NCBI RefSeq assembly: GCF_053078305.1
Contig: NZ_CP166879.1
DNA length: 64,000 bases
Reading direction: 5' to 3' (one strand)
Within the stretch, counting starts at the first letter, position 1, and each line of letters opens with the position of its first letter. The notes beneath the pieces are model-generated. The model was given only the letters and a program-made list of their open reading frames with translations. It had not been told where the DNA came from and searched no databases. Positions 30,101-54,810 of this stretch are shown in pieces. The position numbers were made by a program, and so were the translations under genes.

Positions 30101-33100
30101 TGTATTGTCTGCGCTTCCAGCCCCTGACCGGTATTCTGCGTGTGGCGATTGATAAACTGCAGGGCGTTCAGCGTAATGGCGGAACCACTGCGAATCAGAC
30201 CAGAGACGTTGTCCACAACGCCCCGTACACTGTTGAGCAACATGTCGCCCACAGACTGTATTTGTCCGTGGCTGTTCTGCAGACCTCCCGTATGCAGACG
30301 GAGTTCACCTTCACTGACCAGCCGGCCCCCCTCACGGTTATCCAGCGAGGTGGTGCTCAGGTCAGCTGTCGTTTTCGCCCCCACGGTCCCGCCCCGGTTA
30401 TCCATTGCTCCGGTACTGACAGTCAGTTCCTGCAGGCTGTTCAGCGTACCGCGTCTGTTATCCAGCGTCTGGCCTGCGGTATTAATGCTGATACCCCTCC
30501 CCTGAATAAGACCGGACTGATTGTTCAGCGCCTGGCTGTTCCAGCCGAGCAGACCGTTTGCCACCATCTGACCGGATGTATTGTTAACCACGCCTGCAGT
30601 CAGGGACAGAGCATCTCCCGACAAAAGCACACCGGCAGTGCTGTCCAGTGTGCCGGCATTCAGCGTCATCGGACCCTGACTGATAACCCCGCCCCGGTCA
30701 CCACTATTACGGTTACTCAGTGTGTCAGCACGGAGATTCAGCGATGCACCGCTCTGTATCAGGCCGCCGGCATCGTTGATGATATCCGTCGAGGAAAGTG
30801 TCAGTGACTGCTGTGCCACCAGTCTGCCGCCCTGATTATCAAACCGTGTGACATCCAGCCTGCTGTTACCGTTGCTGACCACCGTCCCCTGCTGATTTTC
30901 CAGCACACTCAGGTGCGTATTCAGGTCCCCGCCGGCGGCAAGCGCCCCTTCCTGATTACTGACATCACCACCACTCAGCAACATATCCGTCCCGGCCTTC
31001 AGTGCGCCTTTCTGGTTCATCAGCGTACCTGACGATATCTGTAATGACGTCTGACTCCCCAGCACGCCCTGACGGTTATCGAGCGTTCCGGCGTTCAGGG
31101 TCATATCCTTCTGACCCGCCATAAATCCCTGCTGGTTATTCAGCATACCGGCCCGCACTGTCAGGGTACCGGCGCTGCTGATACCACCCCGTGTTTTCGT
31201 GTTCCGGTTACTGAGTACCCCGTCCTGTACATCCAGCGTCATGTCACTGCCGGACTGAATCAGACCATCATCAGAGACCAGTTCGCTGCCTGACACAGAC
31301 AGCGTTTTCTGTGAAAGCAGTCTGCCGGACGTATTATCCAGCGCACCATCCAGCGTCACAGACAGCCCGTCAGCCACCACCGTACCCTGGTGGTTATTCA
31401 GATTCCCTGCCGAAATATCCAGCCTGCCGGCGGACTCCATTCGTCCCTCAGTATTGCTGACAGCCTGCTGTGTTTTTATCCTGCCCGTTCCGGCAGCAGC
31501 TGAAATCAGTCCGTTGTCGTTATTCAGCGCCTGTGTATTAATCAGGATGTCACGGCTGGCAAGCAGACGTCCCTGCTGGTTATCCACGGCGCCGGTTGTC
31601 CTCACCTGCAGACTGCCTGACTGCGCCGCCTGCACTTTCCCCCTGCGATTATCAAGGCTCAGTGCATCCAGACGCACCGCGCCATTTGCCGCAAACAGCC
31701 CTTCCCGGTTATCCACGCTTCCCGGCAGACTCAGCGAAAAATCCCCTGTTCCCGTCTGAGTCAGACTGCCTTTACGATTTGACAGGCTTTGTGCCGATAT
31801 CTGCAGTGTGTCGGCATTTATCGTGCCACCATTATTGCTGAAGTGCCCGACAGTCCGGGCGGAAAGCGTACCGGCACTCAGTTGCGCATTCTGTGTGGAC
31901 AGATTTCCACTGGTTGCATCCAGCTCAGTATGTTGTCCCTGTATCCGGCTGTTGCTTAAATCCAGCCCCTGCCCCTTCAGTTGCATGTCCCCACCGGACA
32001 GAACCTGTCCGTGTGCCGCCAGTTCGCCGGTGGTACTGACAGTCAGGTTGCCCGCTGCCGCCAGACGTCCGTCATCTTTCACCCCGGCGGCCAGCAGACT
32101 CCGCTCACCGCCGGTCAGACGCGCTGTCTGAATCCGGGTGTTGCGACGTGATGCCACAGAGCCTGTATGGGTGAAGACACCATCACTCTGTATCTGCGTA
32201 TCCTGCCCCGCATAAACAGAACCACTGTTATGCAGCTCCCGGGTTGTCGCCAGATGCACATCCGTTTTCGCACTGATACTGCCACTGTTTTCAATACGTC
32301 CGTCAGCCGTCAGGGTAACCGCCCCTGCCTGTGCACCAATATGACCGGCGTTACGAACACCCACCCCCGTTTCCGTACCGACAAGGCGAATTTTTCCGGC
32401 ATACATTCCGCCAAGACTGGCCACATCCAGTGCCATCTGAGGCTGTGAAGAGACATCACCGGTCTTTTTCTCAATCTGCCCGTGCGCGATATCCACATTG
32501 TTACGTCCTGTGGTCACTTTCAGATCCTGCGCCCAGATACCCGCATTAATCTTCACAGACCGGGCAATGATATCGGTATAATCCGTGCGCGAGGCATCCA
32601 TCCCTTTGCCCGTAACCTGAATCTCACCACGTTCAACACTGAATCCGGTCAGACTGCCGTTTTTCATCTGCGGCTGCCCCGTGGTCAGCGTGGCCCGGTT
32701 CGCATTAATAAAACCGCACCCGTCGCAACTGATGCCGGCCGGGTTCGCAATCACCACCTGCGCCTTTTTACCGGCAACCTCAACAAAACCGTTCAACTGG
32801 CTGGGATTGCGACTGTTCACTTCATTAAGAATGATTCTGGCCTCTCCCTTAGCCAGCCACGGGTTCCCGGCCACCATGCCACCCAGTTGAGTCTGCACAT
32901 TGTTATGGGCATTATTCAGAATGACGCCCTGGTTACCGACGTCGAACTGGCTGTATGCGTTATGTGAAACCCCGCCGGCAGAAGGCGTCTGAATATTCAC
33001 CTGCGGAATGCCGCTGGCCGTCTGCGTAATCGTGGGCTGCTGATACCCTGGTGCGCCATGGTCTGCGACAATGCCTGCAGCACTGACAGAATGCACCATC

Positions 33101-33279
33101 CCCGAAGCCAGCCACAAAGAGAATGCAAGCGGCGTGACACGGCAGATACGTTGCCTGTGTGGATATCCTGTGCGGGAGGACAGTGATGTACCGGCGCGAC
33201 CGGAACGGGCAATATCTGCCACCACCATCAGCATTCCCCGGGCTTTGTTAAAAATAATGCGGTAACAATTTCTGTTCAT
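24166..33279 (-). CDS. cdiA: CdiA contact-dependent inhibition exoprotein (TpsA/filamentous haemagglutinin family), 3037 aa, with VENN-delimited C-terminal toxin
   Basis: Extended signal peptide (YRIIFNKARG...VVADIARSG), TPS secretion domain (NPAGISCDGCGFINANRATLTTG), long haemagglutinin-type repeats, VENN motif 274 aa before the C-terminus. Confidence 0.85.
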   Translation of the reverse strand: MNRNCYRIIFNKARGMLMVVADIARSGRAGTSLSSRTGYPHRQRICRVTPLAFSLWLASGMVHSVSAAGIVADHGAPGYQQPTITQTASGIPQVNIQTPSAGGVSHNAYSQFDVGNQGVILNNAHNNVQTQLGGMVAGNPWLAKGEARIILNEVNSRNPSQLNGFVEVAGKKAQVVIANPAGISCDGCGFINANRATLTTGQPQMKNGSLTGFSVERGEIQVTGKGMDASRTDYTDIIARSVKINAGIWAQDLKVTTGRNNVDIAHGQIEKKTGDVSSQPQMALDVASLGGMYAGKIRLVGTETGVGVRNAGHIGAQAGAVTLTADGRIENSGSISAKTDVHLATTRELHNSGSVYAGQDTQIQSDGVFTHTGSVASRRNTRIQTARLTGGERSLLAAGVKDDGRLAAAGNLTVSTTGELAAHGQVLSGGDMQLKGQGLDLSNSRIQGQHTELDATSGNLSTQNAQLSAGTLSARTVGHFSNNGGTINADTLQISAQSLSNRKGSLTQTGTGDFSLSLPGSVDNREGLFAANGAVRLDALSLDNRRGKVQAAQSGSLQVRTTGAVDNQQGRLLASRDILINTQALNNDNGLISAAAGTGRIKTQQAVSNTEGRMESAGRLDISAGNLNNHQGTVVADGLSVTLDGALDNTSGRLLSQKTLSVSGSELVSDDGLIQSGSDMTLDVQDGVLSNRNTKTRGGISSAGTLTVRAGMLNNQQGFMAGQKDMTLNAGTLDNRQGVLGSQTSLQISSGTLMNQKGALKAGTDMLLSGGDVSNQEGALAAGGDLNTHLSVLENQQGTVVSNGNSRLDVTRFDNQGGRLVAQQSLTLSSTDIINDAGGLIQSGASLNLRADTLSNRNSGDRGGVISQGPMTLNAGTLDSTAGVLLSGDALSLTAGVVNNTSGQMVANGLLGWNSQALNNQSGLIQGRGISINTAGQTLDNRRGTLNSLQELTVSTGAMDNRGGTVGAKTTADLSTTSLDNREGGRLVSEGELRLHTGGLQNSHGQIQSVGDMLLNSVRGVVDNVSGLIRSGSAITLNALQFINRHTQNTGQGLEAQTIHITTQDLDNQEGSILADRALTVMADRTLSNNDGVLSSGATLSVSGRQLAFSNRDGVVKAGQSVSVDAGQLGGDGKLLSLGDMTLKSNTTFSNSGQTIANGNLTLSVNGDVSNTGSLLAGSRLDLNSIRLENTEKGEISAGQTWLNVTDTLLNRGLIDGKYTHLQANTLTNSGTGRIYGDAVGVSAATFNNLEENGVAATLAGRERVDLGVQTLNNRTHSLIYSAGDMHTGGMLDANGAATGKAGVLNNHSATIEAAGYLVLSAGQINNVNDHFTTERVVVSTEKVTEYQLSGSDKRWSAGEPGVYVDNDSSNSLKKLHTPEGARDKFTQYDYTRTVEETRVKDSDPGKILSGAGMTIVADKLLNDKSQVVAGGLLTIPSGSVENVSVSGERHVTDSGTSTYYYRIRKKGKDKQGEKTSQYTPPTVIQSITLKPGELTSHGQIQGSQVTLSPLKPQGTDVQTGQAGNVDAAVAATDRIPLRPVVSAGEPVILLPGQQFEVSAPQGSIHVAGPDTRLPDSSLFKTNPAVNVPYLVETDPRFTNQKTWLGSDYMQKAFSQNGDNMLKRLGDGFYEQRLIREQVVALTGQRYLDGYSNDEEQFKALMDAGIAFGKQYNLTPGVALTAEQMALLTGDIVWLVNTTVTLPDGSTQTVQVPQVYARVKPGDVNSAGALIAGRDMVMKLDGDLFNSGKLAGKQTVQLSAENIHNQAGSIQGANVSLTARTDINSTGGLLQATDSLLAMAGRDISLTTTTRTAQRDAGQNHFERTSIDSVAGVYVQNDQGRLVLQAGRDMNLTAATVVNQGKDSLTQLSAGRDMTLSTVTTSAQDNIIWDKNNRLSQGVTQSTGSTLAGNGDVTLTAGRDMTSQAASLSAQKGLALMAGHDVTLTGAQNTRSLDEYHKVTGSSGMLSKTTTTTHDVTDRRTMTGSELNGDTVSISAGHNLNVTGSSVAGDNRVSLAAGNDLSIGTLTESNRETHLKQEKKSGLMSSGGVGFSMGSQSLKVTDTATDTTQKGSTVGSVHGDVSLQAGNRLTVNGSDLIAGRDMALSGKEVSITAATDQHVQTHTVEQKTSGLTLALSGTAGSALNTTVETVQAAKSAGNSRLEALQGVKAALSGAQAVQAGRLADAQGADAGNNNTVGISLSYGSQSSKSEQQSEQTVAKGSTLTAGNNLSIQATGSGVKGVDGDLTIQGSQIKAGNNVLLQANRDVNLVSAENTSKLEGKNTSSGGSVGVGVGVGSGGWGISVSASANQGKGSEKGNGTTHTETTVDAGNRLTIISGRDTTLTGAQAGGETVKVDAGRHLTLTSEQDSDRYDSKQQNASAGGSFIFGSMSGSASVNLSRDKMHSNYDSVQEQTGIFAGRGGFDVTTGQHTQLNGAVIASTATADKNRLDTGTLGFSDIENRADFKTEHQSTGLSTGGSVAGNFLGNMANNLLVGANHEGHADSTTQSAVSAGNITIRDTQSQKQDVADLNRDAAHANQTLSPIFDREKEQQRLQQAQLIGEIGNQVADIARTEGQIAGEKAKRDPAALNQARAELEAAGKPFTEQDVAQRAYNNGMAASGFGTGGKYQQAIQAATAAVQGLAGGNLSAALAGGAAPYIAEIIKNNTPDGAGRVAAHAVVNAALAVAQGNNALAGAAGAATGEVVGMIATQMYGKPVSELSETEKQTVSTLATVAAGLAGGLVGNSGASAVAGAQSGKTTVENNFLGATSSDKLDKAIEKIRNGDKTLATANELIKLENADKRSDALVSKFNKDPSQLNSAERAELAAYLRVYASEMEKEYGTAVAQELVTGLLSGQDYIKRNPDTEAMAKAQSIMNTWGYHKSNASIGDAPLLFGGSVLGLTVKGMATNAAIGISVNSAAQLAGKGPFSYVDAIMAGVTAAATTGKGIIVSTPINMSGAAIGSSIKGEDPTNSVIGTGLGSVFGGGIGKVISGSMGSTVKEGTSDIIGNIGGTITGEAIGNVTKGTLDEADKSIKNK

Positions 33280-33294
33280 TCTGATAAACCTGAC

Positions 33295-33822
33295 TTATCT
33301 CTCCGGCACATCCACAGCAAGCGGGTGCTGCACACGCCACTGGCGCGCCTCTTCACGACTGACCTGTGCACCCCGGAAATTCATCACCCGTAACCCGGTC
33401 TGCTGCCCACGGTGGTACAGCGAACGCCAGCACAGACGGGGAAAAATATCCTGCCGGACAAGACGACTCATATCCGGAGTGTGTCCAAAAGGGGCAACCC
33501 AGTCACAGACCCACATCCGGTCGCCGCTGTTCCAGTCCGACTGAGGCATGAGAATTGCCGGCTGCGTAAGATAACGCGCCTCTGCCTCCGGGCTGAGCCA
33601 GGCCTGGCTCATGAAGAAAACCGGTCGCCCCTGCTCTGTTGCCACCACATACTGTCGGTGCTTAATCACCGGCAGCAGCAGGTCCGGCAGGGTATGCAGT
33701 GGCGCATCACGATGCAGGGGGGAGTGCATCCACAACCAGACGGCCGCCCCCAGGACTTCCGCCTCATTGACCGGCTCACCGGAATACAGGGGACTCAGAA
33801 CGTCATATTTCCCGTTACGCAT
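33295..33822 (-). CDS. cdiC: HlyC-family toxin-activating lysine acyltransferase (CdiC-like), 175 aa
   Basis: HlyC-like blocks WLWMHSPLHRDAP and SGDRMWVCDWVAPFG; sits between cdiB and cdiA. Confidence 0.7.
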   Translation of the reverse strand: MRNGKYDVLSPLYSGEPVNEAEVLGAAVWLWMHSPLHRDAPLHTLPDLLLPVIKHRQYVVATEQGRPVFFMSQAWLSPEAEARYLTQPAILMPQSDWNSGDRMWVCDWVAPFGHTPDMSRLVRQDIFPRLCWRSLYHRGQQTGLRVMNFRGAQVSREEARQWRVQHPLAVDVPER

Positions 33823-33831
33823 GAAACTTTC

Positions 33832-35571
33832 TCAGAAATCCCGGAACAGATTAAAACCGGCTGTCACATCACTCGTCATAAAACCCGCCGGCTTTGAAAA
33901 CGGACGACCGATGAAAACGTCATAATCCGTACTGAACAGTTGCCCCCTCAGCCCCACAACACCACCGGCCAGATGACGTCCCACCAGATATTCACTGCCG
34001 GCTCCCCCCACCTCGCCGTAATCCATTCCCAGATATAACGCCTGCTCCGGCAGTGGCGTACGCCAGGCCAGGTCGTTGCGGATATACCAGCCGTTACTGG
34101 CATTCAGCGTTCGCTCCCCGTCAAAACCACGAACCGTCCAGCGGTTACCGATGGCAAACTGTTCCTGTGGGGTCAGCGGGGTATTGCTCAGCTGGCGCTG
34201 ATACCGGAAGGAATAACTGAAGGGCTGCTCTGCCAGTGTAAAGGGCAGATTAAAGGATGCATTCATCTGCAGGATCTTACTGAGCGCCGTTGCCTCACCG
34301 AAGATTTCCTCCGGTGCCGGCTGTGCACCAAACCAGCGGGTTCCCCGTTGCCAGCTGACACCAGCATCCAGTGTGGCCTGAGAAATATAATGACGGTGCT
34401 GCAGCCCAAGTCGCCAGGCCGCTGTCTGCCGGCGCTGCACCTGGATTTCCGTATCATTAATGTAGTTACGCGACCTGCGGGCCTGAACATCGTAAGTCAG
34501 CACCGTTTTCTGCGTCCCGTTACGATGCAGTACCCGGCTCAGCTGCATGCCCAGATTCTGACTCTCGCCACTGTACTGGTAATCCTCAACCGCACCAGCT
34601 ACCGTCTGATGGTAATCGTAATCACTGGCGGTGACGGAAAACTGCCAGTAACCGAAAGGCACAGAGTAATGGGCCGTGTAGTTTTTACTGCCCTTACCCC
34701 CGTAATGTGGAAAATTATGGGTGGCAGAAACATACAGCAGGTCACTCAGGGAAAAAGGATTATCCAGAGAAAATGTTATACCACCGAGATAACGCCCTGT
34801 GCTGCGGGTACCTGAATCATCAAGCGAAAACCCCAGTCGCCAGTATTTATCCTGTTTACGGGTAATAAGAATATCACTTTCCCCTGGCTGCTCACCGGGC
34901 ACAATTTCCATATCAGCCTGCACACCCGGCAGTCGTTGCATATTCTCCAGCCCCTGCTCAATGTCCCGTAAATCCAGCAGAGAACCTTCGTGTGCCGGGA
35001 ATGAGGAATACAACTGAATATAGTCATCACTGTCCGGTGTCAGACGCACATGTCGCACAACACCGGGAATAATAACCAGCCGGAGGATACCGCTTTTTAA
35101 ATCCTGCGAAGGTGCCAGAACACGGGTGGTGACATAACCATGATCGACCAGACGGTTCTGCAATGTACTCATCAGCAGATTAATTCCTTTCGCCCCCAGG
35201 CAATGCCCGACCGCCCCGTTGGCGATTTTTTGTAAAGGCAGCCAGTGTGGTAACGCATCAGCCCCCTTCAGTTCCGTCTGTTTAATCTGAAAACAGGGCG
35301 TTTCAACAGGAAAATTAATCTTATGGGCAAAAGAGCCAGGTGCAGAAAGGCGAACATCAGGGGCTGAAGGCGTCAGTTGTTGCTCAAGGGCTTCCTGACG
35401 CTGCTGCTGAATGATAAATGTATCCTCTCCACTACGCCGGATATCCGCTGCCTGAAGAGATAAAGGCGATAGTAAAACAGACATCAGTGTCAGTGACAGC
35501 AAGGACGGACAGCGCCGGAATACGCTTTGTTCCTCAGCCCTCTCGTTCCTGCAACATAATTTTCCAGTCAA
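33832..35571 (-). CDS. cdiB: CdiB two-partner-secretion outer-membrane transporter (TpsB/ShlB/FhaC family), 579 aa
   Basis: Signal peptide, POTRA-like region, beta-barrel with C-terminal aromatic residue; immediately upstream of cdiC-cdiA. Confidence 0.8.
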
Positions 35572-37444: not shown

Positions 37445-37942
37445 TCACCGGATGATTGTTGCAATACCCCGTGGCATCAGAGACTGAACAGCCGTTTTTA
37501 ACGCAACGTATTGCTCTGATGTATCAGGCCGGACAACCCGAAAACACCTTTCCACCCGGCATTGTCCGCCAGCGCTTATCACCGGCCAGGTCTGTTGCAG
37601 TAAATCCGCCACTTGCGAACATGCTTCATCAACTGTAACACTGGCCCGCGGATGGCAAACACTCGTCTGGCTGAGCAGTAACAGGCAGCGTATTGTTGCT
37701 CCTCCATGTTGTTCCCGCAACCAGCGTAATACCACCGGCGATGATGGGCTGGCAGTGTGATTACGCACAGTAATAAGTTCATAAAAGGAAGTACAGAATG
37801 TCTGAATCTGTTGACCACAGACGCCTTCTGTCGAATGAAGTGTGAAGTGGATTGCCAGCAGATGTGGCCTGTGATCCACCGCCTGCTGCACAAAACGCCG
37901 GATTTCCCCCGGCTCTGAAAGTAAGGCTTCGGTTATTTGCAC
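37445..37942 (-). CDS. Hypothetical protein, 165 aa
   Basis: ORF only. Confidence 0.3.
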   Translation of the reverse strand: MQITEALLSEPGEIRRFVQQAVDHRPHLLAIHFTLHSTEGVCGQQIQTFCTSFYELITVRNHTASPSSPVVLRWLREQHGGATIRCLLLLSQTSVCHPRASVTVDEACSQVADLLQQTWPVISAGGQCRVERCFRVVRPDTSEQYVALKTAVQSLMPRGIATIIR

Positions 37943-38291: not shown

Positions 38292-38858
38292 TTAAAAGTC
38301 ACTACACCCAAGATGACGTTCAACAGCACCATGCGATTCAATGTAAGCCCGGGCTGTCTGTTCCAGTACACCAGGCTCAGCGTTGTATGTGTTAGCTGCA
38401 TCAAATACCAACGACAACACTTCAGGATACACAACCAGATGTGTAATGGAGTTATCTTCACTCAATACTTTTCCCCACGCCTGCTCAATCAGATTTCTTA
38501 GAACCACCACCTCACGACTCTTACACCAGACATCGTTATTAAGTAGCAGCACCATAAGATAAGGAGTGGTATCGTTAGCCACAGCTTCCCTACTCCAGAG
38601 ATAATATAAAGGGGTGGGCTCAACAGATTTATCTTTACGTCTCTTGCACTGCAAATATTCAGAAATGAGTCTATGCAGTTCACCAGTAAAATCAGCCATC
38701 AGAGAGGGAATGGCCTTATTAATACCCTGCCCTGGTATTAATTTAAATTGTAATAATTTAATTTCAGGATGTGTAGCTGCAGCCCGATACAGAGTTGCAA
38801 GGACACACTTTTGCCAGAGGGCGTTACAGGAAAGCTTAACATTTGATTCTGTATACAT
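38292..38858 (-). CDS. Hypothetical protein, 188 aa
   Basis: ORF only. Confidence 0.35.
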   Translation of the reverse strand: MYTESNVKLSCNALWQKCVLATLYRAAATHPEIKLLQFKLIPGQGINKAIPSLMADFTGELHRLISEYLQCKRRKDKSVEPTPLYYLWSREAVANDTTPYLMVLLLNNDVWCKSREVVVLRNLIEQAWGKVLSEDNSITHLVVYPEVLSLVFDAANTYNAEPGVLEQTARAYIESHGAVERHLGCSDF

Positions 38859-38885: not shown

Positions 38886-39128
38886 TCAAAAACCGCTGTA
38901 GCCAGAGTTACGCTGGCCTGATGCTTTAGTGTCGAGCTTCGTCAGATAATCCAGACGTGCCAATAAGCGCTGATACTGCTCAGGGAAATCAGGAGCATTA
39001 ATATCCTGGATGTCACGTCCATTAGCAGGGAAATGAACAATGCAGCCCCCTGGATTAACTATGCAGAAATCATCCTGAGGCACTGATAAATACGGAGAGG
39101 ACTCTCGCGTATGGTTGATTGACACCAC
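38886..39128 (-). CDS. Hypothetical protein, 80 aa
   Basis: ORF only. Confidence 0.25.
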   Translation of the reverse strand: MVSINHTRESSPYLSVPQDDFCIVNPGGCIVHFPANGRDIQDINAPDFPEQYQRLLARLDYLTKLDTKASGQRNSGYSGF

Positions 39129-39329: not shown

Positions 39330-39755
39330 TTAAGTACTCGCACCTCCGCAGTCCTCAAACAAGTCTGGCTGGTAGCTGTAAACAGACTTCGTACATACCG
39401 CTCTGCAATAAATCCCCGTACCACAGGCCTCACAGAACTTCTTCCCATGAAAAAACTGCTCACACATCACACAATGCCACTCCAGCACGACCGGTAATGG
39501 CGATAAAAACATCGCCATATCCTCAATGTAAGGGTGGGACTTCTCCGGATTCAGCACCACACAGTCCGCCTTCTGTTGCTCACTCAGGGCATGTAAATCA
39601 TGCTCAAACCACGCCCCCTGAGCATCTGTCTGCAGAATCAACCGGCCATGGCAGGAAAGGCAGAAACACTGCCGGATATTTCTGCTGAGCGCAGAGTCGG
39701 CACTGATAATGTGCTCACCCGGCGTGATCCCCAGCCCCGTTTTTATACCGTTCAT
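39330..39755 (-). CDS. Cys-rich (zinc-ribbon-like) hypothetical protein, 141 aa; paralogue of the next gene
   Basis: CxxC pairs and shared WFEH motif with the upstream ORF; 4-bp overlap with it. Confidence 0.45.
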   Translation of the reverse strand: MNGIKTGLGITPGEHIISADSALSRNIRQCFCLSCHGRLILQTDAQGAWFEHDLHALSEQQKADCVVLNPEKSHPYIEDMAMFLSPLPVVLEWHCVMCEQFFHGKKFCEACGTGIYCRAVCTKSVYSYQPDLFEDCGGAST

Positions 39756-40135
39756 TCTGCTCCCCCCTCCTCACTGAAGCGCCCGGTCTGGCAGTGTGTG
39801 CAGTACTGCTCCCCATAATAATCGTGGTGACATTGCCTGCAGTGCCAGCTGGCTTTACGTACTACGGGTAAGGCATCCGGGACGAATTGCTGCAGACGTT
39901 TAATCAACCGTATTTCTCTGCGTTCCGGCCTGACATAAGGGCACTCATGACCGTGCTCCGTCAGCCCTTCGTCAGCGTGTTCAAACCAGGGCCGTTCAGT
40001 GTCGTATTGCGGGTGGTATCTGAGTGCACTGCCGCAAAGGTGGCAGGTGTAGCTATCGTAAGGTGCAGTCTGTGCGGTACGGGCACCGGTCAGACGTCCG
40101 TTGCCATCAAGTGCGAGAAAAGATTTTGCGTACAT
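39752..40135 (-). CDS. Cys-rich (zinc-ribbon-like) hypothetical protein, 127 aa
   Basis: CxxC ... CxxC pairs (CHLC, CRQC, CTHC) and WFEH motif. Confidence 0.45.
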   Translation of the reverse strand: MYAKSFLALDGNGRLTGARTAQTAPYDSYTCHLCGSALRYHPQYDTERPWFEHADEGLTEHGHECPYVRPERREIRLIKRLQQFVPDALPVVRKASWHCRQCHHDYYGEQYCTHCQTGRFSEEGGAE

Positions 40136-40507
40136 AGTATATGTTCCTCAGCCGCCAGACGACACGCAGGCAACAGCCGTCCCGGTACGGGCAGCGTGGT
40201 CAGGGTGTGAATGGCGGTTCAGTTAAAATCTGGACTGGAGTTTGGGTAAAGCAGGCTGGTTGCTGTTACAGCACTGTGGTTGTCACACAATGGCCCACTG
40301 ACGTAAAAAACAGTCAGTAAGCAGAGATGGAGATTGGGGGATGTGCTGTATCGGTTGCCGGAAGGAATGGTAAAGAATGTGTCATGGTTAAATCTCCGTA
40401 TGGTTCATACGGAATGGCCACGCCGTAAAAAATGCGCAGAGCCGCTGAAGTGGCCGCCGGAACCGACAGCAAAGATTAGCGCCAGCCCGTACTTGTCGTT
40501 CAGGGGC

Positions 40508-41107
40508 TTACACCAGAGCACATATCCCCGGCAGGGGGCTGTCCAGTCGTGGTCGACCACGGTTACTTTTTTCAGGAAGCCCGCTGCATTTCAGGATGAT
40601 GCCACATTCTTTCTGTTCCCGTTTGGCCAGGTAGCTGATGGCATAGCGTAAATCATTCACCGCTTTGTGATCTGAATAGTGAATGACGTGGTTAATGTTT
40701 ACCGGATAATTTTTATTAAACCGGCACCAGTGGTAGTAACCATTACCATCGGTAACCCGCCTCCAGATATCTCCCATCAATCTGGATACCAGATACGAAC
40801 TCCTGTGGATCTGACCGTTCAGATAGCCCACAAAATGAATGTGAAGCCCTTTACGTTCTGTATATTCCATCACCCAGGCATACCCGACCAGTTTCTCTCC
40901 CACCTCGTTAATCAGTTGCAGCATCTCCGCGCACATGGCGTACCTGCAGGCGCATCCGTAGCTGAATGTGTTTTTTCGGTAAGCAAAATCCATTCTGAAC
41001 GGTAACAGCTTCGAATAGACCCCGAATAATGAATCCAGATGCTGGTTAAAGTGTGTCAGGAGCTGGGGAGCCATTTCGTAAGCGGGATTGGTGTTATAAG
41101 TTTGCAT
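40508..41107 (-). CDS. Inovirus Gp2-like / HUH-motif Rep-like protein, 199 aa
   Basis: HUH-type motif LHIHFVGY and downstream tyrosines (RYAISYLAK); recalled similarity to the Gp2 family proteins common in E. coli islands. Confidence 0.45.
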   Translation of the reverse strand: MQTYNTNPAYEMAPQLLTHFNQHLDSLFGVYSKLLPFRMDFAYRKNTFSYGCACRYAMCAEMLQLINEVGEKLVGYAWVMEYTERKGLHIHFVGYLNGQIHRSSYLVSRLMGDIWRRVTDGNGYYHWCRFNKNYPVNINHVIHYSDHKAVNDLRYAISYLAKREQKECGIILKCSGLPEKSNRGRPRLDSPLPGICALV

Positions 41108-41338: not shown

Positions 41339-41692
41339 TCAGGTAACATATTTCCAGACTGAAGCGGGAACACGATCGTAAAGTTTGTTCATGGTCAGTT
41401 CTGCCAGCCGGTGATCGACCGCAGAGTTGAAGGCTTCCATCTCCGCTGGAGTAAGCTTATAACGCGTGTGGGAAATCACTTTTTCCAGTGTCTCCCGGGA
41501 TGAACAACGACGGAACTGATACAGCCAGTCTTCTTTGGTCTTAACTTCCATTATCCTCTCGTTATTTTGTGCTGTGATTAACGTTAACATAATACCGTCA
41601 GAATAACGTATTCTGACGTCATCCCGGAAGTCTTTCCACTTTCCTGTCTCTCCGGTAATAAAACATTTTAAATGCTGAAGGCATAACGCCAT
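41339..41692 (-). CDS. Hypothetical protein, 117 aa (or 71 aa from MEVKTKEDW)
   Basis: ORF only. Confidence 0.3.
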   Translation of the reverse strand: MALCLQHLKCFITGETGKWKDFRDDVRIRYSDGIMLTLITAQNNERIMEVKTKEDWLYQFRRCSSRETLEKVISHTRYKLTPAEMEAFNSAVDHRLAELTMNKLYDRVPASVWKYVT

Positions 41693-42502: not shown

Positions 42503-43294
42503 ATGACAACACGTATAACTTTCAATATGACCAGTGATGAGACGCTGCGAATTGTGGATGAGTACTGTCATACCCACAAACTTTCGCGCTCTAAGGTAAT
42601 CGACGCATTACTCAGCGCCACAGCACCTGTCCTTAACGATATTAACTGTTATTATCAACTTGCAGGCAAACTGCAGTCACGCTTATTAAATGGAGTGTAT
42701 CAACGGGATCTTCCTCACAAACGCAATGTCGTCAGTGCAGAGAAGTATTGTCTGGAAATCTGGGAAAACAAACTTTTCACCAAAAGAATCCTGGAGTTTG
42801 ACAGTTCAAATGGTGTTCTATACGCGCTGAAACATAAAAGACACTATCGCCGGGATAAGATGATTGGACGGGTTGAAAGCCGGCGTATCAAAGACATTTG
42901 CGAATACCAGATGCAACTGTCCGGGGAGAAGGCAAAATATGCCTGTTTTATTTATATTGAAAGAACAATATACAATCACGATAATCCATCCGGTGAAACA
43001 CCTGTAAAAGCGGCTGTTGGTAATGCAGTCATCCTGCTGGCAAAAGACGTGATATATGACGAGTACTTTTTTGATCTGCGGCAGTCATTTTTCGTGAGCG
43101 TTAAAGATTTGATGGCCTCTGGCGCAAAAGGTATTCCGGAGACACAGAAATATCCGGACGTTTATTGCTGGATCCCGCTTTTCTCCATAAATTCCGGCGT
43201 GGTCATTACCCCGGTCTATAAAATTGATCCCCGGAAACCCGTAACGGTAAAAAAACCGGATCAGATCACTGTTGTTTGTAATTACAGAGAATAA
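42503..43294 (+). CDS. Hypothetical protein, 263 aa, low-GC
   Basis: Long ORF preceded by a very AT-rich region carrying TTACAG-type repeats; no motif recognised. Confidence 0.5.
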   Translation: MTTRITFNMTSDETLRIVDEYCHTHKLSRSKVIDALLSATAPVLNDINCYYQLAGKLQSRLLNGVYQRDLPHKRNVVSAEKYCLEIWENKLFTKRILEFDSSNGVLYALKHKRHYRRDKMIGRVESRRIKDICEYQMQLSGEKAKYACFIYIERTIYNHDNPSGETPVKAAVGNAVILLAKDVIYDEYFFDLRQSFFVSVKDLMASGAKGIPETQKYPDVYCWIPLFSINSGVVITPVYKIDPRKPVTVKKPDQITVVCNYRE

Positions 43295-43676: not shown

Positions 43677-43883
43677 ATGAAGACCCCAGTTTCGCTGATG
43701 GATGACCAGATGGTCGACATGGCGTTTATCACTCAACTGACCGGCTTAACCGATAAGTGGTTTTATAAGCTCATCAAAGATGGTGCCTTTCCGGCCCCCA
43801 TCAAACTCGGCCGCAGCTCCCGATGGCTGAAAAGTGAAGTGGAAGCCTGGTTGCAGGCGCGTATTGCACAATCCCGTCCGTAA
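43677..43883 (+). CDS. alpA: AlpA-family prophage transcriptional regulator, 68 aa
   Basis: Characteristic AlpA sequence (LTGLTDKWFYKLIKDGAFPAPIKLGRSSRWLKSEVEAWL). Confidence 0.8.
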   Translation: MKTPVSLMDDQMVDMAFITQLTGLTDKWFYKLIKDGAFPAPIKLGRSSRWLKSEVEAWLQARIAQSRP

Positions 43884-43968: not shown

Positions 43969-44541
43969 ATGCAAAAACTTGAAAACCGGTGTGATCTGCT
44001 GCTAATTCAGCATCAGAAATGGATGGCAAGTGTAACCCGGTTTATTGTCGCTCATGGAATGGGCTCTCCGCATCTTCATGGTTATCACCGCCTGACCCTG
44101 GCTCACTTTTTTCTACCGGAAAAAGGCACCATCATCTCAGTGGCACCACAGGGACTCTATCAGGTCGTCAACCCGGGAACGCCACCGTTCATTCCTGCCA
44201 TTCAGGAAGGGTTAATGACCAGCATTCAGACCCATGAAATCATGCTGCTTACGCATTTTAATCTGGGCGGCGTTTTACTCAGTGAGCTACATCGTCTGGG
44301 CGAAAGCCGGCTGGCAAACAGGCTGAACAGTCTGCTCCGGCGTTTCGAAGATCGCGATCTCTACCACACGCTGATATGGCTGTGCTGGTATGATCTGATG
44401 TGTGCCCACTCCATGCAGCCCTGGACTGAAGAGTTAAAGCATAAATCACACACAGAGCTTGAAAGCTGGGCTGTGGCGCGCAAACGGGAAAAGCGCGAGC
44501 TTGAACTGATGATTGACGAGTATCTGTTATACGCCTGTTGA
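43969..44541 (+). CDS. Hypothetical protein, 190 aa
   Basis: ORF following alpA; no motif recognised. Confidence 0.4.
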   Translation: MQKLENRCDLLLIQHQKWMASVTRFIVAHGMGSPHLHGYHRLTLAHFFLPEKGTIISVAPQGLYQVVNPGTPPFIPAIQEGLMTSIQTHEIMLLTHFNLGGVLLSELHRLGESRLANRLNSLLRRFEDRDLYHTLIWLCWYDLMCAHSMQPWTEELKHKSHTELESWAVARKREKRELELMIDEYLLYAC

Positions 44542-46121: not shown

Positions 46122-47141
46122 ATGAATAACGAACAGATGCTTATCAAATGCAAAGATCCCCGTAAATGTCGGTTTTATGCTGAATATCTGAATCACAAAT
46201 ACCCCAATGAATTCCCTCAGTTTGCGCCTGACAACCCACAAAACTGTATCAGAAATGTTAATGCGTTTTTAAAAGAAAAGTATTGTAATACTTCAAACAA
46301 TTCTTTTGGTGTTTTTGGTTCGACTGCAGAAGAAGCTCTCAGCAAAGAAATTAATGAACTTGAAATTATTGCAGGGCAGGCAATACTGCCTGAAGAGAGT
46401 TTTCTCTGGTTGAAAACTGACGAACTTGCGACTTTCTTTACCTGGACTACTATTTATCTGTCGAAGGAAGACCATACAAATTTCCCGGAAATAAACCATA
46501 ATTCATCAGGGATAAAAAACGGAATTGAAGTCAGAAAAAGACGAACAGTTACCGATGAAACGTTAAATACTTACAAAAAAAGTAACCTTCCGGATAATCC
46601 ATCATCCCATAACGAACGAATAAAAGTAATCATTTTATATTTTGATTCCTGTCATTCTTTAATTAATAAAAATGCAAAAAGCATATACCTCGAGGAACTC
46701 AGGCAGACGTGGCTTAAAAATAAAAGCGCTTGTCAAAAGTTTAAGTGGCTCCTTCCTGACGATGATGAAATGTGTCAGTGGTTCTGGACAAGACTGAAAC
46801 AAAAACAGGATGAAACACATCCGGTACATAACCCGGTGACCCGGTGGTTCATACCATCTTCAACGAAAGAATATTATCTTGCCTCTCTCGTCGCCTTTGC
46901 TTTATGGAAAGAGGCACCTGATACCATTGAACTGTTCAGAACACGCATAAATCATGCCTGGCATCAAAAAAAACAAAAAGACAAATATCGGAATGATGGT
47001 AAAAAGGCTATTAATATACATATAAGAAGCAATGCGAAAGAAATGCTTGATGAACTCAGAACTGTTTACGGTCTGAGAACAGGAGAGTTTTTTGAAATGC
47101 TGATTACAGAAAAATATCTTGAACACAAGCGAAGGAAGTAA
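46122..47141 (+). CDS. Hypothetical protein, 339 aa, strongly AT-rich (Lys/Asn-rich)
   Basis: Long ORF after a noncoding AT-rich stretch of about 1.1 kb; foreign composition. Confidence 0.5.
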   Translation: MNNEQMLIKCKDPRKCRFYAEYLNHKYPNEFPQFAPDNPQNCIRNVNAFLKEKYCNTSNNSFGVFGSTAEEALSKEINELEIIAGQAILPEESFLWLKTDELATFFTWTTIYLSKEDHTNFPEINHNSSGIKNGIEVRKRRTVTDETLNTYKKSNLPDNPSSHNERIKVIILYFDSCHSLINKNAKSIYLEELRQTWLKNKSACQKFKWLLPDDDEMCQWFWTRLKQKQDETHPVHNPVTRWFIPSSTKEYYLASLVAFALWKEAPDTIELFRTRINHAWHQKKQKDKYRNDGKKAINIHIRSNAKEMLDELRTVYGLRTGEFFEMLITEKYLEHKRRK

Positions 47142-47250
47142 TTCATTACCTGTTACATTCTAAATAATCTCAGACAGATATTATCTCCGTGAATCCCCCG
47201 CCACCTTTCCGGTGCGCGGGGTTTTGTCTTTTTTCACCGGGAATACATGT

Positions 47251-48123
47251 ATGAATCCGTCTGATGCCATTGAGGCAATTGAAAAACCGCTCTCCTCCCT
47301 GCCTTACTCACTTTCCCGTCACATCCTGGAACATCTGCGCAAACTCACCAGCCACGAACCCGTGATTGGCATTATGGGGAAAAGCGGGGCCGGTAAATCC
47401 TCACTCTGTAATGCACTGTTTCAGGGGGAGGTCACCCCGGTCAGTGATGTTCACGCCGGCACCCGGGAAGTGCGGCGCTTCCGTCTGAGTGGCCATGGTC
47501 ACAACATGGTTATCACTGACCTGCCCGGGGTGGGTGAGAGCCGGGACAGGGATGCAGAGTATGAAGCCCTGTACCGTGACATTCTGCCTGAACTTGACCT
47601 GGTGCTGTGGCTGATTAAAGCCGATGACCGTGCCATGTCTGTGGATGAGTATTTCTGGCGACACATCCTGCACCAGGGACATCAGCAGGTGCTGTTTGTG
47701 GTGACACAGGCCGACAAAACGGAGCCCTGCCATGAATGGGATATGGCCGGTATTCAGCCTTCTCCCGCACAGGCACAGAATATTCGCGAAAAAACGGAGG
47801 CGGTATTCCGTCTGTTCCGGCCCGTACATCCGGTTGTGGCCGTATCGGCCCGCACCGGCTGGGAACTGGATACGCTGGTCAGTGCGCTCATGACAGCGCT
47901 TCCCGACCATGCCGCCAGTCCCCTGATGACCCGCCTGCAGGACGAGCTGCGCACGGAATCTGTCCGCTCTCAGGCCCGTGAACAGTTTACCGGTGCGGTG
48001 GACCGGATATTTGACACGGCGGAGAGCGTCTGTGTTGCCTCTGTTGCCCGTACGGTTCTGCGTGCCGTCCGTGACACGGTGGTCTCTGTTGCCCGCGCTG
48101 TATGGAACTGGATTTTCTTCTGA
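47251..48123 (+). CDS. yeeP: YeeP/YkfA/YfjP-family GTPase (50S ribosome-binding GTPase-like), about 290 aa
   Basis: P-loop GKSGAGKSSL, DLPG motif; conserved position upstream of agn43 in CP4-44-like modules. Start set at the first in-frame ATG with a plausible context. Confidence 0.7.
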   Translation: MNPSDAIEAIEKPLSSLPYSLSRHILEHLRKLTSHEPVIGIMGKSGAGKSSLCNALFQGEVTPVSDVHAGTREVRRFRLSGHGHNMVITDLPGVGESRDRDAEYEALYRDILPELDLVLWLIKADDRAMSVDEYFWRHILHQGHQQVLFVVTQADKTEPCHEWDMAGIQPSPAQAQNIREKTEAVFRLFRPVHPVVAVSARTGWELDTLVSALMTALPDHAASPLMTRLQDELRTESVRSQAREQFTGAVDRIFDTAESVCVASVARTVLRAVRDTVVSVARAVWNWIFF

Positions 48124-48241
48124 ACACTCTGCCAGGAAAATGCCTGATTACATTGCGTTAACCAACTGAAAACATGACACAAACACCTCATGCTCCTCCT
48201 GTTTCTCTTGCGTGACCGCCTTGCAATCAATAGAATAAAAC

Positions 48242-48277
48242 GATCGATAAAACAGATATCGATCGTTACTATCGATC
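48242..48277. promoter_or_regulatory. Three closely spaced GATC (Dam) sites in the agn43 upstream region: candidate OxyR/Dam phase-variation switch
   Basis: GATC at 48242, 48261 and 48274 within cgatcgataaaacagatatcgatcgttactatcgatcgtt, about 220 bp upstream of the agn43 ATG. Confidence 0.65.
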
Positions 48278-48494
48278 GTTTATAGTGGTTAATGGTCTGC
48301 GAAAAGGCAGTTGAATCTCTTCATCATGCAGAACGGAATTGCACAAAACGGACTGATACTTCTCTGGCGGATGAGAGAGGGGAAGCATTTATGTCCGGGA
48401 AAAACCACTGTATCTGACCATGCTGTTTTGTACCTGCCGGTATCCACATTTGTGGGTACCGGCTTTTTTATTCACCCTCTGTAAGGAAAAGCTG

Positions 48495-51400
48495 ATGAAA
48501 CGACATCTGAACACCAGCTACAGGCTGGTATGGAATCACATTACGGGCACCCTGGTGGTGGCCTCCGAACTGGCCCGCTCACGGGGAAAACGCGCCGGTG
48601 TGGCGGTTGCTCTGTCTCTTGCTACTGTCACGTCAGTCCCGGCACTGGCTGCTGACACGGTTGTTCAGGCAGGAGAAACCGTGAATGGCGGAACACTGGT
48701 AAACCATGACAACCAGTTTGTATCCGGAACAGCTGATGGCGTGACTGTCAGTACCGGGCTTGAGCTGGGGCCGGACAGTGACGAAAACACCGGCGGGCAA
48801 TGGATAAAAGCGGGTGGCACAGGCAGAAACACCACTGTCACCGCAAATGGTCGTCAGATTGTGCAGGCAGGAGGAACTGCCAGTGATACGGTTATTCGTG
48901 ACGGCGGGGGACAGAGCCTGAACGGGCTGGCGGTGAACACCACGCTGAATAACAGAGGCGAGCAGTGGGTTCATGAGGGCGGGGTTGCCACCGGTACAAT
49001 TATCAACCGCGACGGTTACCAGAGCGTTAAAAGTGGCGGGCTGGCAACAGGAACCATCATCAACACCGGCGCAGAAGGCGGCCCGGATTCTGACAACTCG
49101 TACACGGGTCAGAAGGTCCAGGGAACAGCAGAATCCACCACCATCAACAAAAATGGACGGCAGATTATCTTATTTTCCGGGATAGCCCGTGACACTCTCA
49201 TTTACGCAGGTGGTGACCAGTCGGTACACGGAAGGGCCCTGAATACCACACTGAATGGCGGTTACCAGTATGTGCACAAGGACGGACTTGCGCTGAACAC
49301 GGTAATTAACGAGGGGGGCTGGCAGGTTGTTAAGGCAGGTGGTGCTGTCGGTAACACCACCATAAATCAGAACGGTGAACTGAGAGTACATGCCGGCGGG
49401 GAAGCAACTGCAGTCACCCAGAACACGGGCGGTGCACTGGTTACCAGTACGGCTGCAACCGTTACCGGCATAAACCGCCTGGGAGCATTCTCCGTTGTGG
49501 CGGGTAAGGCTGATAATGTCGTACTGGAAAATGGCGGACGTCTGGATGTGCTGAGCGGACACACAGCCACTAATACCCGTGTGGATGATGGCGGAACGCT
49601 GGATGTCCGCAACGGTGGTGCCGCCACCACCGTATCCATGGGGAATGGCGGTGTACTGCTGGCCGATTCCGGGGCCGCTGTCAGTGGTACCCGGAGCGAC
49701 GGAAAGGCATTCAGTATCGGAGGCGGTCAGGCGGATGCCCTGATGCTGGAAAAAGGCAGTTCCTTCACACTGAACGCCGGTGATACGGCCACGGATACCA
49801 CGGTAAATGGCGGACTGTTCACCGCCAGAGGGGGCTCGCTGGCGGGCACCACCACGCTGAATAACGGTGCCACGCTTACCCTTTCCGGGAAAACGGTGAA
49901 TAACGATACCCTGACCATCCATGAAGGTGATGCACTCCTGCAGGGAGGCGCTCTTACCGGTAACGGCAGGGTGGAAAAATCAGGAAGTGGCACACTCACT
50001 GTCAGCAACACCACACTCATCCAGAAAACCGTCAACCTGAATGAAGGCACGCTGACGCTGAACGACAGTACCGTCACCACGGATGTCATCGCTCAGCGCG
50101 GCACGGCCCTGAAGCTGACCGGCAGCACAGTGCTGAACGGTGCCATTGACCCCACGAATGTCACCCTGACATCCGGTGCCACCTGGAATATCCCCGATAA
50201 CGCCACGGTGCAGTCGGTGGTGGATGACCTCAGCCATGCCGGACAGATTCATTTCACCTCCACCCGCACAGGGAAGTTCGTACCGGCAACCCTGAAAGTG
50301 AAAAACCTGAACGGGCAGAATGGCACCATCAGCCTGCGTGTACGCCCGGATATGGCACAGAACAATGCTGACAGACTGGTCATTGACGGCGGCAGGGCAA
50401 CCGGAAAAACCATCCTGAACATGGTGAACGCCGGCAACAGTGCGTCGGGGCTGGCGACCAGCGGTAAGGGTATTCAGGTGGTGGAAGCCATTAACGGTGC
50501 CACCACGGAGGAAGGGGCCTTTGTCCAGGGGAACAGGCTGCAGGCCGGGGCCTTTAACTACTCCCTCAACCGGGACAGTGATGAGAGCTGGTATCTGCGC
50601 AGTGAAAATGCTTATCGTGCAGAAGTCCCCCTGTATGCCTCCATGCTGACACAGGCAATGGACTATGACCGGATTCTGGCAGGCTCCCGCAGCCATCAGA
50701 CCGGTGTAAACGGTGAAAATAACAGCGTCCGTCTCAGCATTCAGGGCGGCCATCTCGGTCACGATAACAACGGCGGTATTGTCCGTGGGGCCACGCCGGA
50801 AAGCAGCGGCAGCTATGGCTTCGTCCGCCTGGAGGGTGACCTGCTGAGAACAGAGGTTGCCGGTATGTCTCTGACGACAGGGGTGTATGGTGCTGCAGGC
50901 CATTCTTCCGTTGATGTTAAGAATGATGACGGCTCCCGTGCCGGCACGGTCCGGGATGATGCCGGCAGTCTGGGCGGATACCTGAATCTGGTACACAACG
51001 CCTCCGGCCTGTGGGCTGACATTGTGGCCCAGGGAACCCGCCACAGCATGAAAGCGTCATCGGACAATAACGACTTCCGCGCCCGGGGCTGGGGCTGGCT
51101 GGGCTCACTGGAAACCGGTCTGCCCTTCAGTATCACTGACAATCTGATGCTGGAGCCGCAACTGCAGTACACCTGGCAGGGACTCTCCCTGGATGACGGC
51201 CAGGATAACGCCGGTTATGTGAAGTTCGGGCATGGCAGTGCACAACATGTGCGTGCCGGTTTCCGTCTGGGCAGCCACAACGATATGACCTTTGGTGAAG
51301 GCACCTCATCCCGTGACACCCTGCGCGGCAGTGCCAAACACAGTGTGCGTGAACTGCCGGTGAACTGGTGGGTACAGCCTTCTGTTATCCGCACCTTCAG

Positions 51401-51617: not shown

Positions 51618-51737
51618 CAGAACCATCGCCTCTCTGTGGTCCCGGTCATCATGATCGGGACCCGGACCGGCGCAACGGATATTCAACGCCACATTCGCTG
51701 GCATTAACAATAACATGATATTCATCACGGAGTGACT

Positions 51738-54254: not shown

Positions 54255-54329
54255 CGGCTATTCTGCGCCTTTTACGCTTTATCACCTGATTTGTCAGTGT
54301 CATCGTCATGACTCAGAGAGGTAAATACC

Positions 54330-54785: not shown

Positions 54786-54810
54786 TCCCTGAAGTCAGTT
54801 TCATGCTTCA

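Follow-up and report, generated by a model that had tools for sequence, protein, structure and literature searches.

A gene for an HUH-type protein, two zinc-ribbon genes and alpA as a candidate mobility or replication core of a CP4-44/CP4-57-type island of Escherichia coli

We analysed a stretch of 64,000 nucleotides (hereafter the window; contig NZ_CP166879.1 of the RefSeq assembly GCF_053078305.1), and more particularly three genes encoding an HUH-like protein and two zinc-ribbon proteins, which all lie on its minus strand:

40508-41107, minus strand: HUH-like gene encoding a protein of 199 amino acids (aa), from the list of open reading frames (ORFs).
39752-40135, minus strand: gene for ZnR-A (zinc-ribbon protein A), 127 aa, from the ORF list and Pfam.
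39330-39755, minus strand: gene for ZnR-B (zinc-ribbon protein B), 141 aa, a paralogue of ZnR-A, from the ORF list and Pfam.

With a confidence that falls just short of even, we propose that these three genes and the nearby alpA gene form the conserved mobility/replication core of an integrative island of the CP4-44/CP4-57 type, which would act through a scheme of excision, nicking and copying. The initial annotation of the locus had pointed to an LHIHFVGY motif in the 199-aa ORF, which occupies residues 88-95 of the product, and to two overlapping, paralogous, Cys-rich ORFs immediately downstream. The overlap and the paralogy are confirmed: the start of ZnR-B lies on the stop of ZnR-A (ATGA, a 4-bp overlap), and the two proteins are 33% identical over 83 residues (E 4e-12), each with three CxxC pairs and the WFEH motif that had been noticed in both. 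Their position had to be corrected, as a non-coding spacer of 372 bp separates the HUH gene from ZnR-A. The three ORFs are genuine genes and not chance ORFs, because the zinc-ribbon products exceed the Pfam gathering thresholds and the ratio of non-synonymous to synonymous substitution rates (dN/dS) is below 1. The dN/dS values, calculated pairwise by the Nei-Gojobori method among three E. coli alleles and resting on small counts, range from 0.09 to 0.47 over all genes (HUH gene, 0.26-0.47; ZnR-A, 0.13-0.16; ZnR-B, 0.09-0.19). The 1.8-kb block of three genes is found with at least 80% coverage in 720 of 5426 complete E. coli genomes, and a partial match to it occurs in 3844 of them.

The 199-aa protein possesses all three motifs of the Rep-class HUH enzymes (RxD, HUH and Tyr), in the order of the Rep proteins. 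Motif I (KLLPFRMDF, with R38 and D40) is in a predicted strand (residues 33-43), the HUH motif (H89-I-H91) is in another predicted strand (87-97) and the tyrosine motif (Y155-AIS-Y159-LAK) is in a predicted helix (147-161). Both HUH histidines are invariant in 10 homologues with identities down to 36%, and so are R38, D40, E81, Y155, S158, Y159, L160 and K162 in the alignment down to that identity. E81 is a candidate third metal ligand, and we take the spacing of E81, H89, H91 and the later tyrosine to resemble that of the Rep nuclease of adeno-associated virus. The motifs conserved family-wide, including in the divergent subtype B (YfjJ of E. coli K-12 and island proteins of other genera), are RxD, HxH and Y-[LM]-x-K. 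Since Y159 is conserved also in subtype B, it is likely the catalytic tyrosine, Y155 being subtype-specific. The YxxxY two-tyrosine motif and the separate zinc-binding proteins are reminiscent of IS91-family transposases, so that one might class the HUH protein with the single-strand transposases (IS91/ISCR or IS200/IS605 kind) and see in the zinc-ribbon proteins its split-off zinc-finger domain. We regard this view as extremely improbable: the 199-aa protein matches no transposase family, its gene occupies a fixed place in a conserved island backbone and does not occur as scattered copies with their own ends, and Y159 alone is conserved throughout the family.

All 10 full-length subfamily members match both PF23343 (REP_ORF2-G2P; best E 8e-7) and PF11726 (YagK_YfjJ_C; best E 1e-7), and the 199-aa protein appears to be a borderline, divergent member of these two families. 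On sequence grounds, we assign it to subtype A of the 'inovirus-type Gp2 / YagK-YfjJ' family. Its AlphaFold (AF2) model, with a predicted local distance difference test (pLDDT) of 82 and a predicted template-modelling score (pTM) of 0.80, is confident and has the topology strand-helix-strand-strand-helix-strand, in which strands carry motif I and HUH and a helix further on carries the tyrosines; the predicted fold is like that of the HUH nucleases. A Foldseek comparison with predicted viral structures returned 31 matches at E<=1e-3, the first being 'Inovirus Gp2' (E 6e-8, template-modelling score 0.60). The named matches are mostly Gp2, ORF2/G2P, Rep of the circular Rep-encoding single-stranded DNA (CRESS) viruses and parvovirus NS1, most of the others being nameless, and U94 of human herpesvirus 6 appeared at E 1.5e-3.

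The HUH identity suggested by the initial annotation is thus upheld by the motif set and by an HUH-like predicted fold. The resemblance to inovirus Gp2, which had also been suggested, is valid for the fold and the family name, but it does not extend to sequence kinship with phages: the Pfam scores are sub-threshold, and a tblastn search of 50,697 phage records with the HUH protein matched only two Acinetobacter contigs (24% identity) and none of the filamentous phages. The only PHROGs match of the 199-aa protein is a family of unknown function, and a profile search of the PDB sequences with the HUH family returned nothing. We rejected the possibility of an inovirus gpII replication protein or a filamentous prophage, as the neighbours are island genes, with no phage genes and no inovirus relatives. 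The 'inovirus' label seems nominal, mainly a family name. Distant HUH homologues occur on about 80 Acinetobacter plasmids, and the Acinetobacter lwoffii plasmid pALWEK1.14 (4760 bp; locus L015, 3387-4430) encodes a 347-aa Gp2-type HUH protein beside its own Rep_3 initiator. Because this plasmid has a Gp2-type gene besides its own initiator, it hints, by analogy, that some members of the HUH family could operate in mobilisation rather than replication.

ZnR-A and ZnR-B each consist of a DUF7828 domain and a Zn_ribbon_11 domain, both above the Pfam thresholds (105.4 and 33.5 bits, respectively, in ZnR-A; 79.5 and 55.7 bits in ZnR-B). ZnR-A has a CCHC site (C31, C34, H53 and C65) around WFEH and a C4 site (C99, C102, C112 and C115). 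All of 32 diverse homologues share C31, C34, F51, H53, W97, C99, C102, C112 and C115, and at least 90% of them have C65. These domain matches and invariant ligands, together with the mutual identity of the two proteins, bear out the earlier suggestion of zinc-ribbon paralogues. The AF2 model of ZnR-A (pLDDT 86.6) shows two domains joined by a helix; it has no fold match among the PDB structures, and a profile of the family found in the PDB sequences only a weak cysteine-pattern match to RPB9 (E 0.03). PHROGs returned nothing for the zinc-ribbon proteins, and tblastn of ZnR-A gave no match in the phage records. The family is narrow: only 246 relatives at E<=1e-3 emerged when 1.84 billion cluster representatives were searched exhaustively with HMMER; zinc-ribbon loci number 3 in the 2.9 million contigs of IMG/VR. 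We found no mention of DUF7828 or Zn_ribbon_11 in the literature searched.

Eleven of the 32 family members match CoiA_N (best E 6.9e-5), and 11 of 32 match DUF7830, while ZnR-A and ZnR-B themselves do not reach CoiA_N significance in Pfam. From these matches, the N-terminal domain of the zinc-ribbon proteins appears to be distantly related to that of CoiA, in which a PD-(D/E)XK nuclease domain is predicted behind that region, at residues 56-209 (PMC1189080). By analogy, the theme common to CoiA and the zinc-ribbon proteins would be a small zinc module fused to, or encoded beside, a DNA nuclease. We infer that the zinc-ribbon proteins bind nucleic acid, presumably DNA.

The linkage of these genes was studied in the contexts of eight remote zinc-ribbon proteins (25-30% identical to those of the window), and in further loci from Hafnia, a plasmid-borne Klebsiella island, another E. 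coli lineage and an IMG/VR contig, i.e. about 13 independent loci in all. A YagK/Gp2-type HUH gene adjoins the zinc-ribbon gene, on its upstream side, in all of them, and no locus with enough flank lacks alpA. Most often, HUH, AlpA and zinc ribbon follow one another in this order on one strand, and this operon diverges from a gene for a 280-390-aa protein and an arm of GTPase, DUF932, antirestriction, RadC and CbtA genes; beyond the zinc-ribbon gene come variable cargo and, where visible, an integrase. The Hafnia locus (L013), for instance, comprises a subtype-A HUH gene (37% identical to that of the window), AlpA and two zinc-ribbon genes. The co-occurrence of HUH, alpA and zinc-ribbon genes that the initial annotation had suggested checking is therefore conserved across genera. 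This linkage is one-way, in that CP4-57, Orbus and Limnobaculum have HUH and AlpA but no zinc-ribbon gene. The alpA gene of the window is located as follows:

43677-43883, plus strand: alpA, 68 aa (PF05930, 36.6 bits against a threshold of 21).

In E. coli, alpA is inverted and stands on the other side of the HUH gene, whereas it stands between the HUH and zinc-ribbon genes in other genera. The E. coli gene is nevertheless the orthologue of the latter: the window alpA shows 74% identity over 58 residues with its Klebsiella counterpart and 94% with that of E. coli locus L011, and by eye it is similar to the Hafnia L013 alpA and unlike the CP4-57 AlpA of K-12. In Klebsiella pneumoniae (plasmid pRWS292.s3; locus L016, 7750-17905), the full module, with HUH, AlpA, two zinc-ribbon genes, a dead HUH paralogue and DUF2913, is carried by large IncF/IncHI1B plasmids, beside a resistance-nodulation-division (RND) efflux pump cluster, which shows that islands of the CP4 kind also land in plasmids, with resistance cargo.

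The comparison of these loci revealed a conserved element ahead of the zinc-ribbon genes:

40136-40260, minus strand: conserved non-coding element of about 90-125 nt, directly upstream of ZnR-A (cross-locus comparison).

Its core, GCTGCCCGTACCGGGACGGCTGTTGCCTGCGTGTCGTCTGGCGGC, is followed by a Shine-Dalgarno sequence. The element is near-identical among the E. coli loci, including those with unrelated HUH subtypes; its core is 88% identical in the Klebsiella island, where the ZnR-A coding DNA is 59% identical, and what survives of it in Hafnia is GCTGCCC..CCGGGA.GG.T...GCCTGCGT.TC.TC.GGC. In E. coli, Klebsiella and Hafnia, it is conserved as well as or better than the adjoining coding DNA. In the remote loci, a short hairpin and then, 7-11 nt further on, GCCTG(Y) are found 27-46 nt before the zinc-ribbon ATG in several independent lineages, and are absent in four. 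Two exact copies of TGCCCGTACCG (40075-40085 and 40183-40193, minus strand) lie 108 nt apart and straddle the ZnR-A start, one in the 5' leader and the other in ZnR-A codons 14-18; about one match with at most one mismatch is expected by chance in the whole window. These copies may be paired binding sites. Because loci with unrelated HUH subtypes share the element, ZnR-A and AlpA, we view the element as a candidate operator/promoter, which may regulate the zinc-ribbon genes or may be bound by AlpA or by the zinc-ribbon proteins; an HUH nick site is less likely.

Rfam has no match at the element, its RNA folding is no better than that of shuffled sequences (z -0.31), and a promoter and terminator scan at the module was uninformative. 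The 372-bp spacer was also considered as a decayed alpA, which was rejected since tblastn gave no match. The matches listed for an 18-base pattern (15 specified bases) in a scan of genome contigs are in unrelated taxa, and the enterobacterial one that was examined lies inside an unrelated coding region; these matches look like chance.

The hairpin with GCCTG(Y) 7-11 nt on has a geometry like that of a relaxase and its origin of transfer (oriT). In the main rival explanation, the HUH protein would be a relaxase that nicks the oriT of the excised island, the single strand being then piloted through the mating channel of a conjugative plasmid; the island would be an integrative mobilisable element and the zinc-ribbon proteins relaxosome accessories. 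The chemistry would be the same as for a replication initiator, and the HUH operon diverges from the DUF932-antirestriction-RadC arm. Such an arm resembles the early-entering leading regions of conjugative plasmids. Furthermore, 80 of the 108 homologue-bearing plasmids are typed as mobilisable, and the 4.7-kb Acinetobacter plasmid has its Gp2-type gene besides its own Rep_3 initiator. We consider a relaxase to be rather unlikely, however, for the following reasons. First, no relaxase family is among the Pfam matches (in a general Pfam scan). Second, no coupling protein or oriT was identified. Third, the element travels with ZnR-A and alpA and not with the HUH subtype, which is a poor fit to an HUH recognition site. 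Fourth, the related Pseudomonas island was moved by a phage, conjugation having been tested separately (PMC12595487).

Downstream of ZnR-B, the minus strand carries three genes related, or probably related, to the HUH gene:

38886-39128, minus strand: C-terminal fragment of a YagK/YfjJ subtype-B HUH gene, an 80-aa ORF, remnant (subtype-B hidden Markov model (HMM) and RefSeq).
38292-38858, minus strand: full-length degenerate YagK/YfjJ paralogue, 188 aa (PF11726, E 5e-10; subtype-B HMM, E 2e-16).
37445-37942, minus strand: 165-aa protein without the HUH histidines (BLASTP to a Klebsiella 'Gp2' gene).

The 80-aa ORF covers positions 150-201 of the subtype-B HMM (E 6.6e-7) and is named a YagK/YfjJ domain protein by RefSeq. 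In the 188-aa paralogue, aligned to K-12 YfjJ, PYL replaces HYH and a Gln occupies the position of the catalytic Tyr; its dN/dS among the three E. coli alleles (0.14-0.33, small counts) indicates purifying selection. The 165-aa protein has no Pfam match of its own; BLASTP links it (E 7e-10) to a degenerate 188-aa 'inovirus-type Gp2' gene located behind the Klebsiella zinc-ribbon pair in locus L016, for which PF11726 in turn gives a weak match (E 0.0022). From this chain of matches, it is probably a second degenerate HUH-fold paralogue. As a dead HUH paralogue also lies behind the zinc-ribbon genes in loci L003 and L016, a non-catalytic HUH-fold partner seems to be a recurrent component of the module.

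These paralogues could also mean that the whole module is a decayed or domesticated remnant, whose proteins would at most regulate island genes by binding DNA. The HUH and Tyr residues have indeed been lost from two or three neighbouring HUH paralogues, which are still under purifying selection, many frameshifted alleles are present in databases, and the island is a mosaic with many insertion sequences, in which alpA is inverted relative to the ancestral order. Against this, the catalytic residues of the 199-aa protein do not vary even among widely diverged homologues, the ORFs are intact with a dN/dS of 0.26-0.47 for the HUH gene, and the linkage is kept across genera, in islands with intact integrases. 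Weighing both sides, we find decay to a remnant quite unlikely.

The window DNA is from E. coli, and the 8 kb around the locus are 99.7% identical to strain GPEC1176, where RefSeq labels the genes a 'YagK/YfjJ domain-containing protein' and two 'putative zinc ribbon proteins'. The host element is a mosaic, pathogenicity-type E. coli island of about 60 kb, of the CP4-44/CP4-57 type ('cryptic P4-like'). The right arm, alpA and the HUH gene of such an island are within the window, and the integrase is inferred from the near-identical GPEC1176 island, where a tyrosine integrase gene (locus L019, 31934-33115) adjoins ulaE; here it would lie beyond the window. The island does not sit at a tRNA gene but splits the ula (ascorbate) operon, with ulaE on one side and ulaD on the other; the right junction is at 59954-60224, and there are no tRNA genes within the window. 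The initial annotation had seen in the three genes and alpA the core of a small integrative or satellite element: the conserved synteny argues for the core, but an island of about 60 kb is not small, and a satellite lifestyle is conjectural. Two further features of the island are as follows:

46122-59953, plus strand: right arm (Pfam and RefSeq annotation of the GPEC1176 island).
41339-41551, minus strand: Hha/YmoA-family gene (PF05321, 92 bits, and NCBIfam Hha subfamily).

The right arm encodes a 339-aa protein without known family, a YeeP-type GTPase, Ag43 and IrmA (both named after the GPEC1176 annotation), DUF932, an antirestriction protein, RadC, DUF987, CbeA/CbtA, DUF5983 and DUF4942, and its end adjoins ulaD. 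The 339-aa backbone protein (46122-47141), ahead of the GTPase, has no family match; its gene's position, divergent from the HUH operon, is occupied by a 280-390-aa protein without known family in all other genera examined. An IS102 RNA (Rfam) was found at 48240-48476, extending from shortly before the Ag43 gene into its start. On the minus strand, the genes follow one another as hha-like, the 199-aa HUH gene, ZnR-A, ZnR-B, the YfjJ-like fragment, the 188-aa YagK paralogue, the 165-aa gene and an ECs1377-family gene. The Hha/YmoA-family gene, located between the HUH gene and alpA and annotated in GPEC1176 and GF43, has for predicted product an island-borne nucleoid-associated modulator. It is variable among the E. 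coli versions of the module, being absent or a remnant in some, and an IS2 copy separates it from the HUH gene in GPEC1176. Just upstream of alpA, a 263-aa ORF (42503-43294) of low GC content (about 0.38) has nothing above threshold in Pfam, NCBIfam, PHROGs and PADLOC (an aCcr1-like N-terminal match is sub-threshold, E 0.0025), and looks like a separate insertion. After alpA, a 190-aa backbone protein without family match (43969-44541) shows 36% identity with the corresponding protein of another E. coli lineage.

The island cargo comprises iha, lutABC, a gene for a large AAA protein, insertion sequences and, in the window, a two-partner secretion pair. This pair (24166-35571) consists of a 3037-aa hemagglutinin-repeat exoprotein and an ShlB/FhaC-type transporter; it is also present in some strains and absent from the otherwise near-identical GPEC1176 island. 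An ALIL frameshift pseudoknot (Rfam) was detected at 10141-10257, in an IS3-family remnant. Near it, the block 10753-17258 encodes a 1652-aa AAA-domain protein and an adjoining 515-aa hypothetical protein, and this two-gene block is a possible defence system. Another reading of the HUH and zinc-ribbon genes is that they are anti-phage defence or anti-defence cargo: islands of this type bear defence genes beside the module (Gabija-like, SMEK/CTD10 and a YprA-like helicase), and defence systems commonly pair a nuclease with zinc-finger partners. We hold this to be very unlikely, given that PADLOC gave no match for 10 local proteins and that the module belongs to the backbone, with a constant place by alpA, while the cargo varies. 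No families of phage-satellite genes of the PICI (phage-inducible chromosomal island) or P4-like kind (primase-replicase, sid/psu/delta, terS, rpp/ppi) were found in Pfam or PHROGs among the proteins of the module and its neighbours, the part of the island genes that was scanned.

We now return to the proposal that the HUH gene, the zinc-ribbon genes and alpA make up a mobility/replication core. In CP4-57, AlpA raises integrase expression and excision. By analogy, the AlpA protein of the window, of the excisionase/activator type, would help the integrase to excise the island in circular form. HUH enzymes cut single-stranded DNA by means of a metal ion held by two histidines and form a 5'-phosphotyrosine. 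In the 199-aa protein, H89 and H91, with E81 or D40, would hold the metal ion, and Y159, with Y155, would cut one strand at a specific site, joining the enzyme covalently to the 5' end and leaving a 3'-OH. The 3'-OH would then prime the rolling-circle copying of the excised island by a host polymerase and helicase, which would yield additional copies, single strands or concatemers for transport by a helper phage or plasmid. We infer the nicking and rolling-circle steps from the motifs, the fold and the context. Part of this context is the CP4-57 gene order in K-12, which is alpA, yfjI (DUF3987) and yfjJ, as DUF3987 proteins resemble primase-helicases. The two zinc-ribbon proteins, each with a CoiA_N-like CCHC domain and a C4 ribbon, would bind DNA at or near the module in an accessory or regulatory role, and the dead HUH paralogues encoded downstream would be non-cutting DNA-binding partners.

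Several points weigh against this proposal. First, both Pfam matches of the 199-aa protein are below the gathering thresholds (PF23343, E 4.5e-5, 24.1 bits versus 27.8; PF11726, E 1.4e-4, 22.3 bits versus 25.8). Second, a scan for repeats and hairpins around the module found no iterons, no notable hairpins near the HUH gene and no convincing origin, and the DNA upstream of the HUH genes, compared in 11 loci by shared k-mers and blastn, displays no conservation beyond E. coli. Third, the module encodes no helicase or primase. Fourth, near-identical ZnR-A (89%) and alpA (94%) and the same upstream element are paired with two unrelated HUH subtypes in E. coli islands, which argues against a tight, specific partnership between the HUH and zinc-ribbon proteins. 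Fifth, the island is densely populated by insertion sequences and is possibly no longer mobile. Lastly, no experimental test of any member of the HUH or zinc-ribbon families was found in the literature searched.

A bolder version of the proposal is that HUH, AlpA and one or more CoiA_N-like zinc-ribbon proteins, often with a dead HUH paralogue, constitute a new three-part DNA-processing machine for the replication or transfer of the very common CP4-type islands of Enterobacterales, with the zinc-ribbon proteins as a new class of accessory factors and the hairpin/GCCTG element as the site of assembly or regulation. We consider it doubtful, and grant it little probability. CP4-type islands occur in most E. 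coli genomes and carry virulence, resistance and anti-phage cargo, and the cargo of the related loci includes Ag43, Iha, two-partner secretion genes, RND efflux pumps and Gabija-like systems. The nickase, AlpA and zinc-ribbon core provides a small, testable gene set for the copying and movement of such islands.

Among known systems, the closest are the YagK/YfjJ proteins of the E. coli islands CP4-6 and CP4-57, which share with the window protein the PF11726 signal, the RxD, HUH and Y-[LM]-x-K motifs and the partnership with alpA in a tyrosine-integrase island, and after which RefSeq names the window gene. The window protein is however of a distinct subtype: it has no significant BLAST match to a subtype-B island protein, matches K-12 YfjJ over the 18-residue HUH region only, and differs by the extra Tyr (YxxxY), the RGRPR tail and the sub-threshold family score. 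As for gene content, CP4-57 has yfjI and no zinc-ribbon genes. With the Rep-class HUH initiators (REP_ORF2-G2P, CRESS Rep, parvovirus NS1 and SIRV1 ORF119), the window protein shares the motif order (I, HUH, Tyr) and the predicted fold, and its small, helicase-less size resembles that of the small plasmid initiators; it differs by a marginal sequence similarity (24.1 bits versus 27.8) and by its location in a chromosomal island rather than in a phage or plasmid. Unlike CoiA, the zinc-ribbon proteins have a C4 ribbon in place of the nuclease domain, an HUH nuclease being encoded next door instead.

Two recent studies bear directly on the island type. Islands with integrase, AlpA and HUH 'Rep-like' genes have been described in silico (PMC12458937), and Gp2-like proteins have been placed, also in silico, among the likely core functions of the intY-alpA islands (PMC12595487); the latter study reports, for a related Pseudomonas island, excision in circular or concatemeric form and movement with a jumbo phage. 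The two studies thus independently call such HUH genes island core functions or rolling-circle initiators, in silico only, and a word search of both texts found no mention of zinc ribbons. The HUH and AlpA part of our proposal was therefore already put forward in silico in 2025, and the three genes belong to families already annotated, in an island type that is known and very common. The zinc-ribbon linkage, the relation to CoiA_N, the recurrent dead HUH paralogues and the upstream element appear to be undescribed in the literature searched. The islands of these studies (for Pseudomonas, intY-alpA-RadC-Gp2-like) and that of the window have in common an integrase at one end, an AlpA-like excisionase, an HUH gene and a far-end RadC/ArdB/CbtA block; they differ in that the window island is inserted at ulaE/ulaD and not at a tRNA gene, and that transfer by a jumbo phage has been shown for the Pseudomonas element only.

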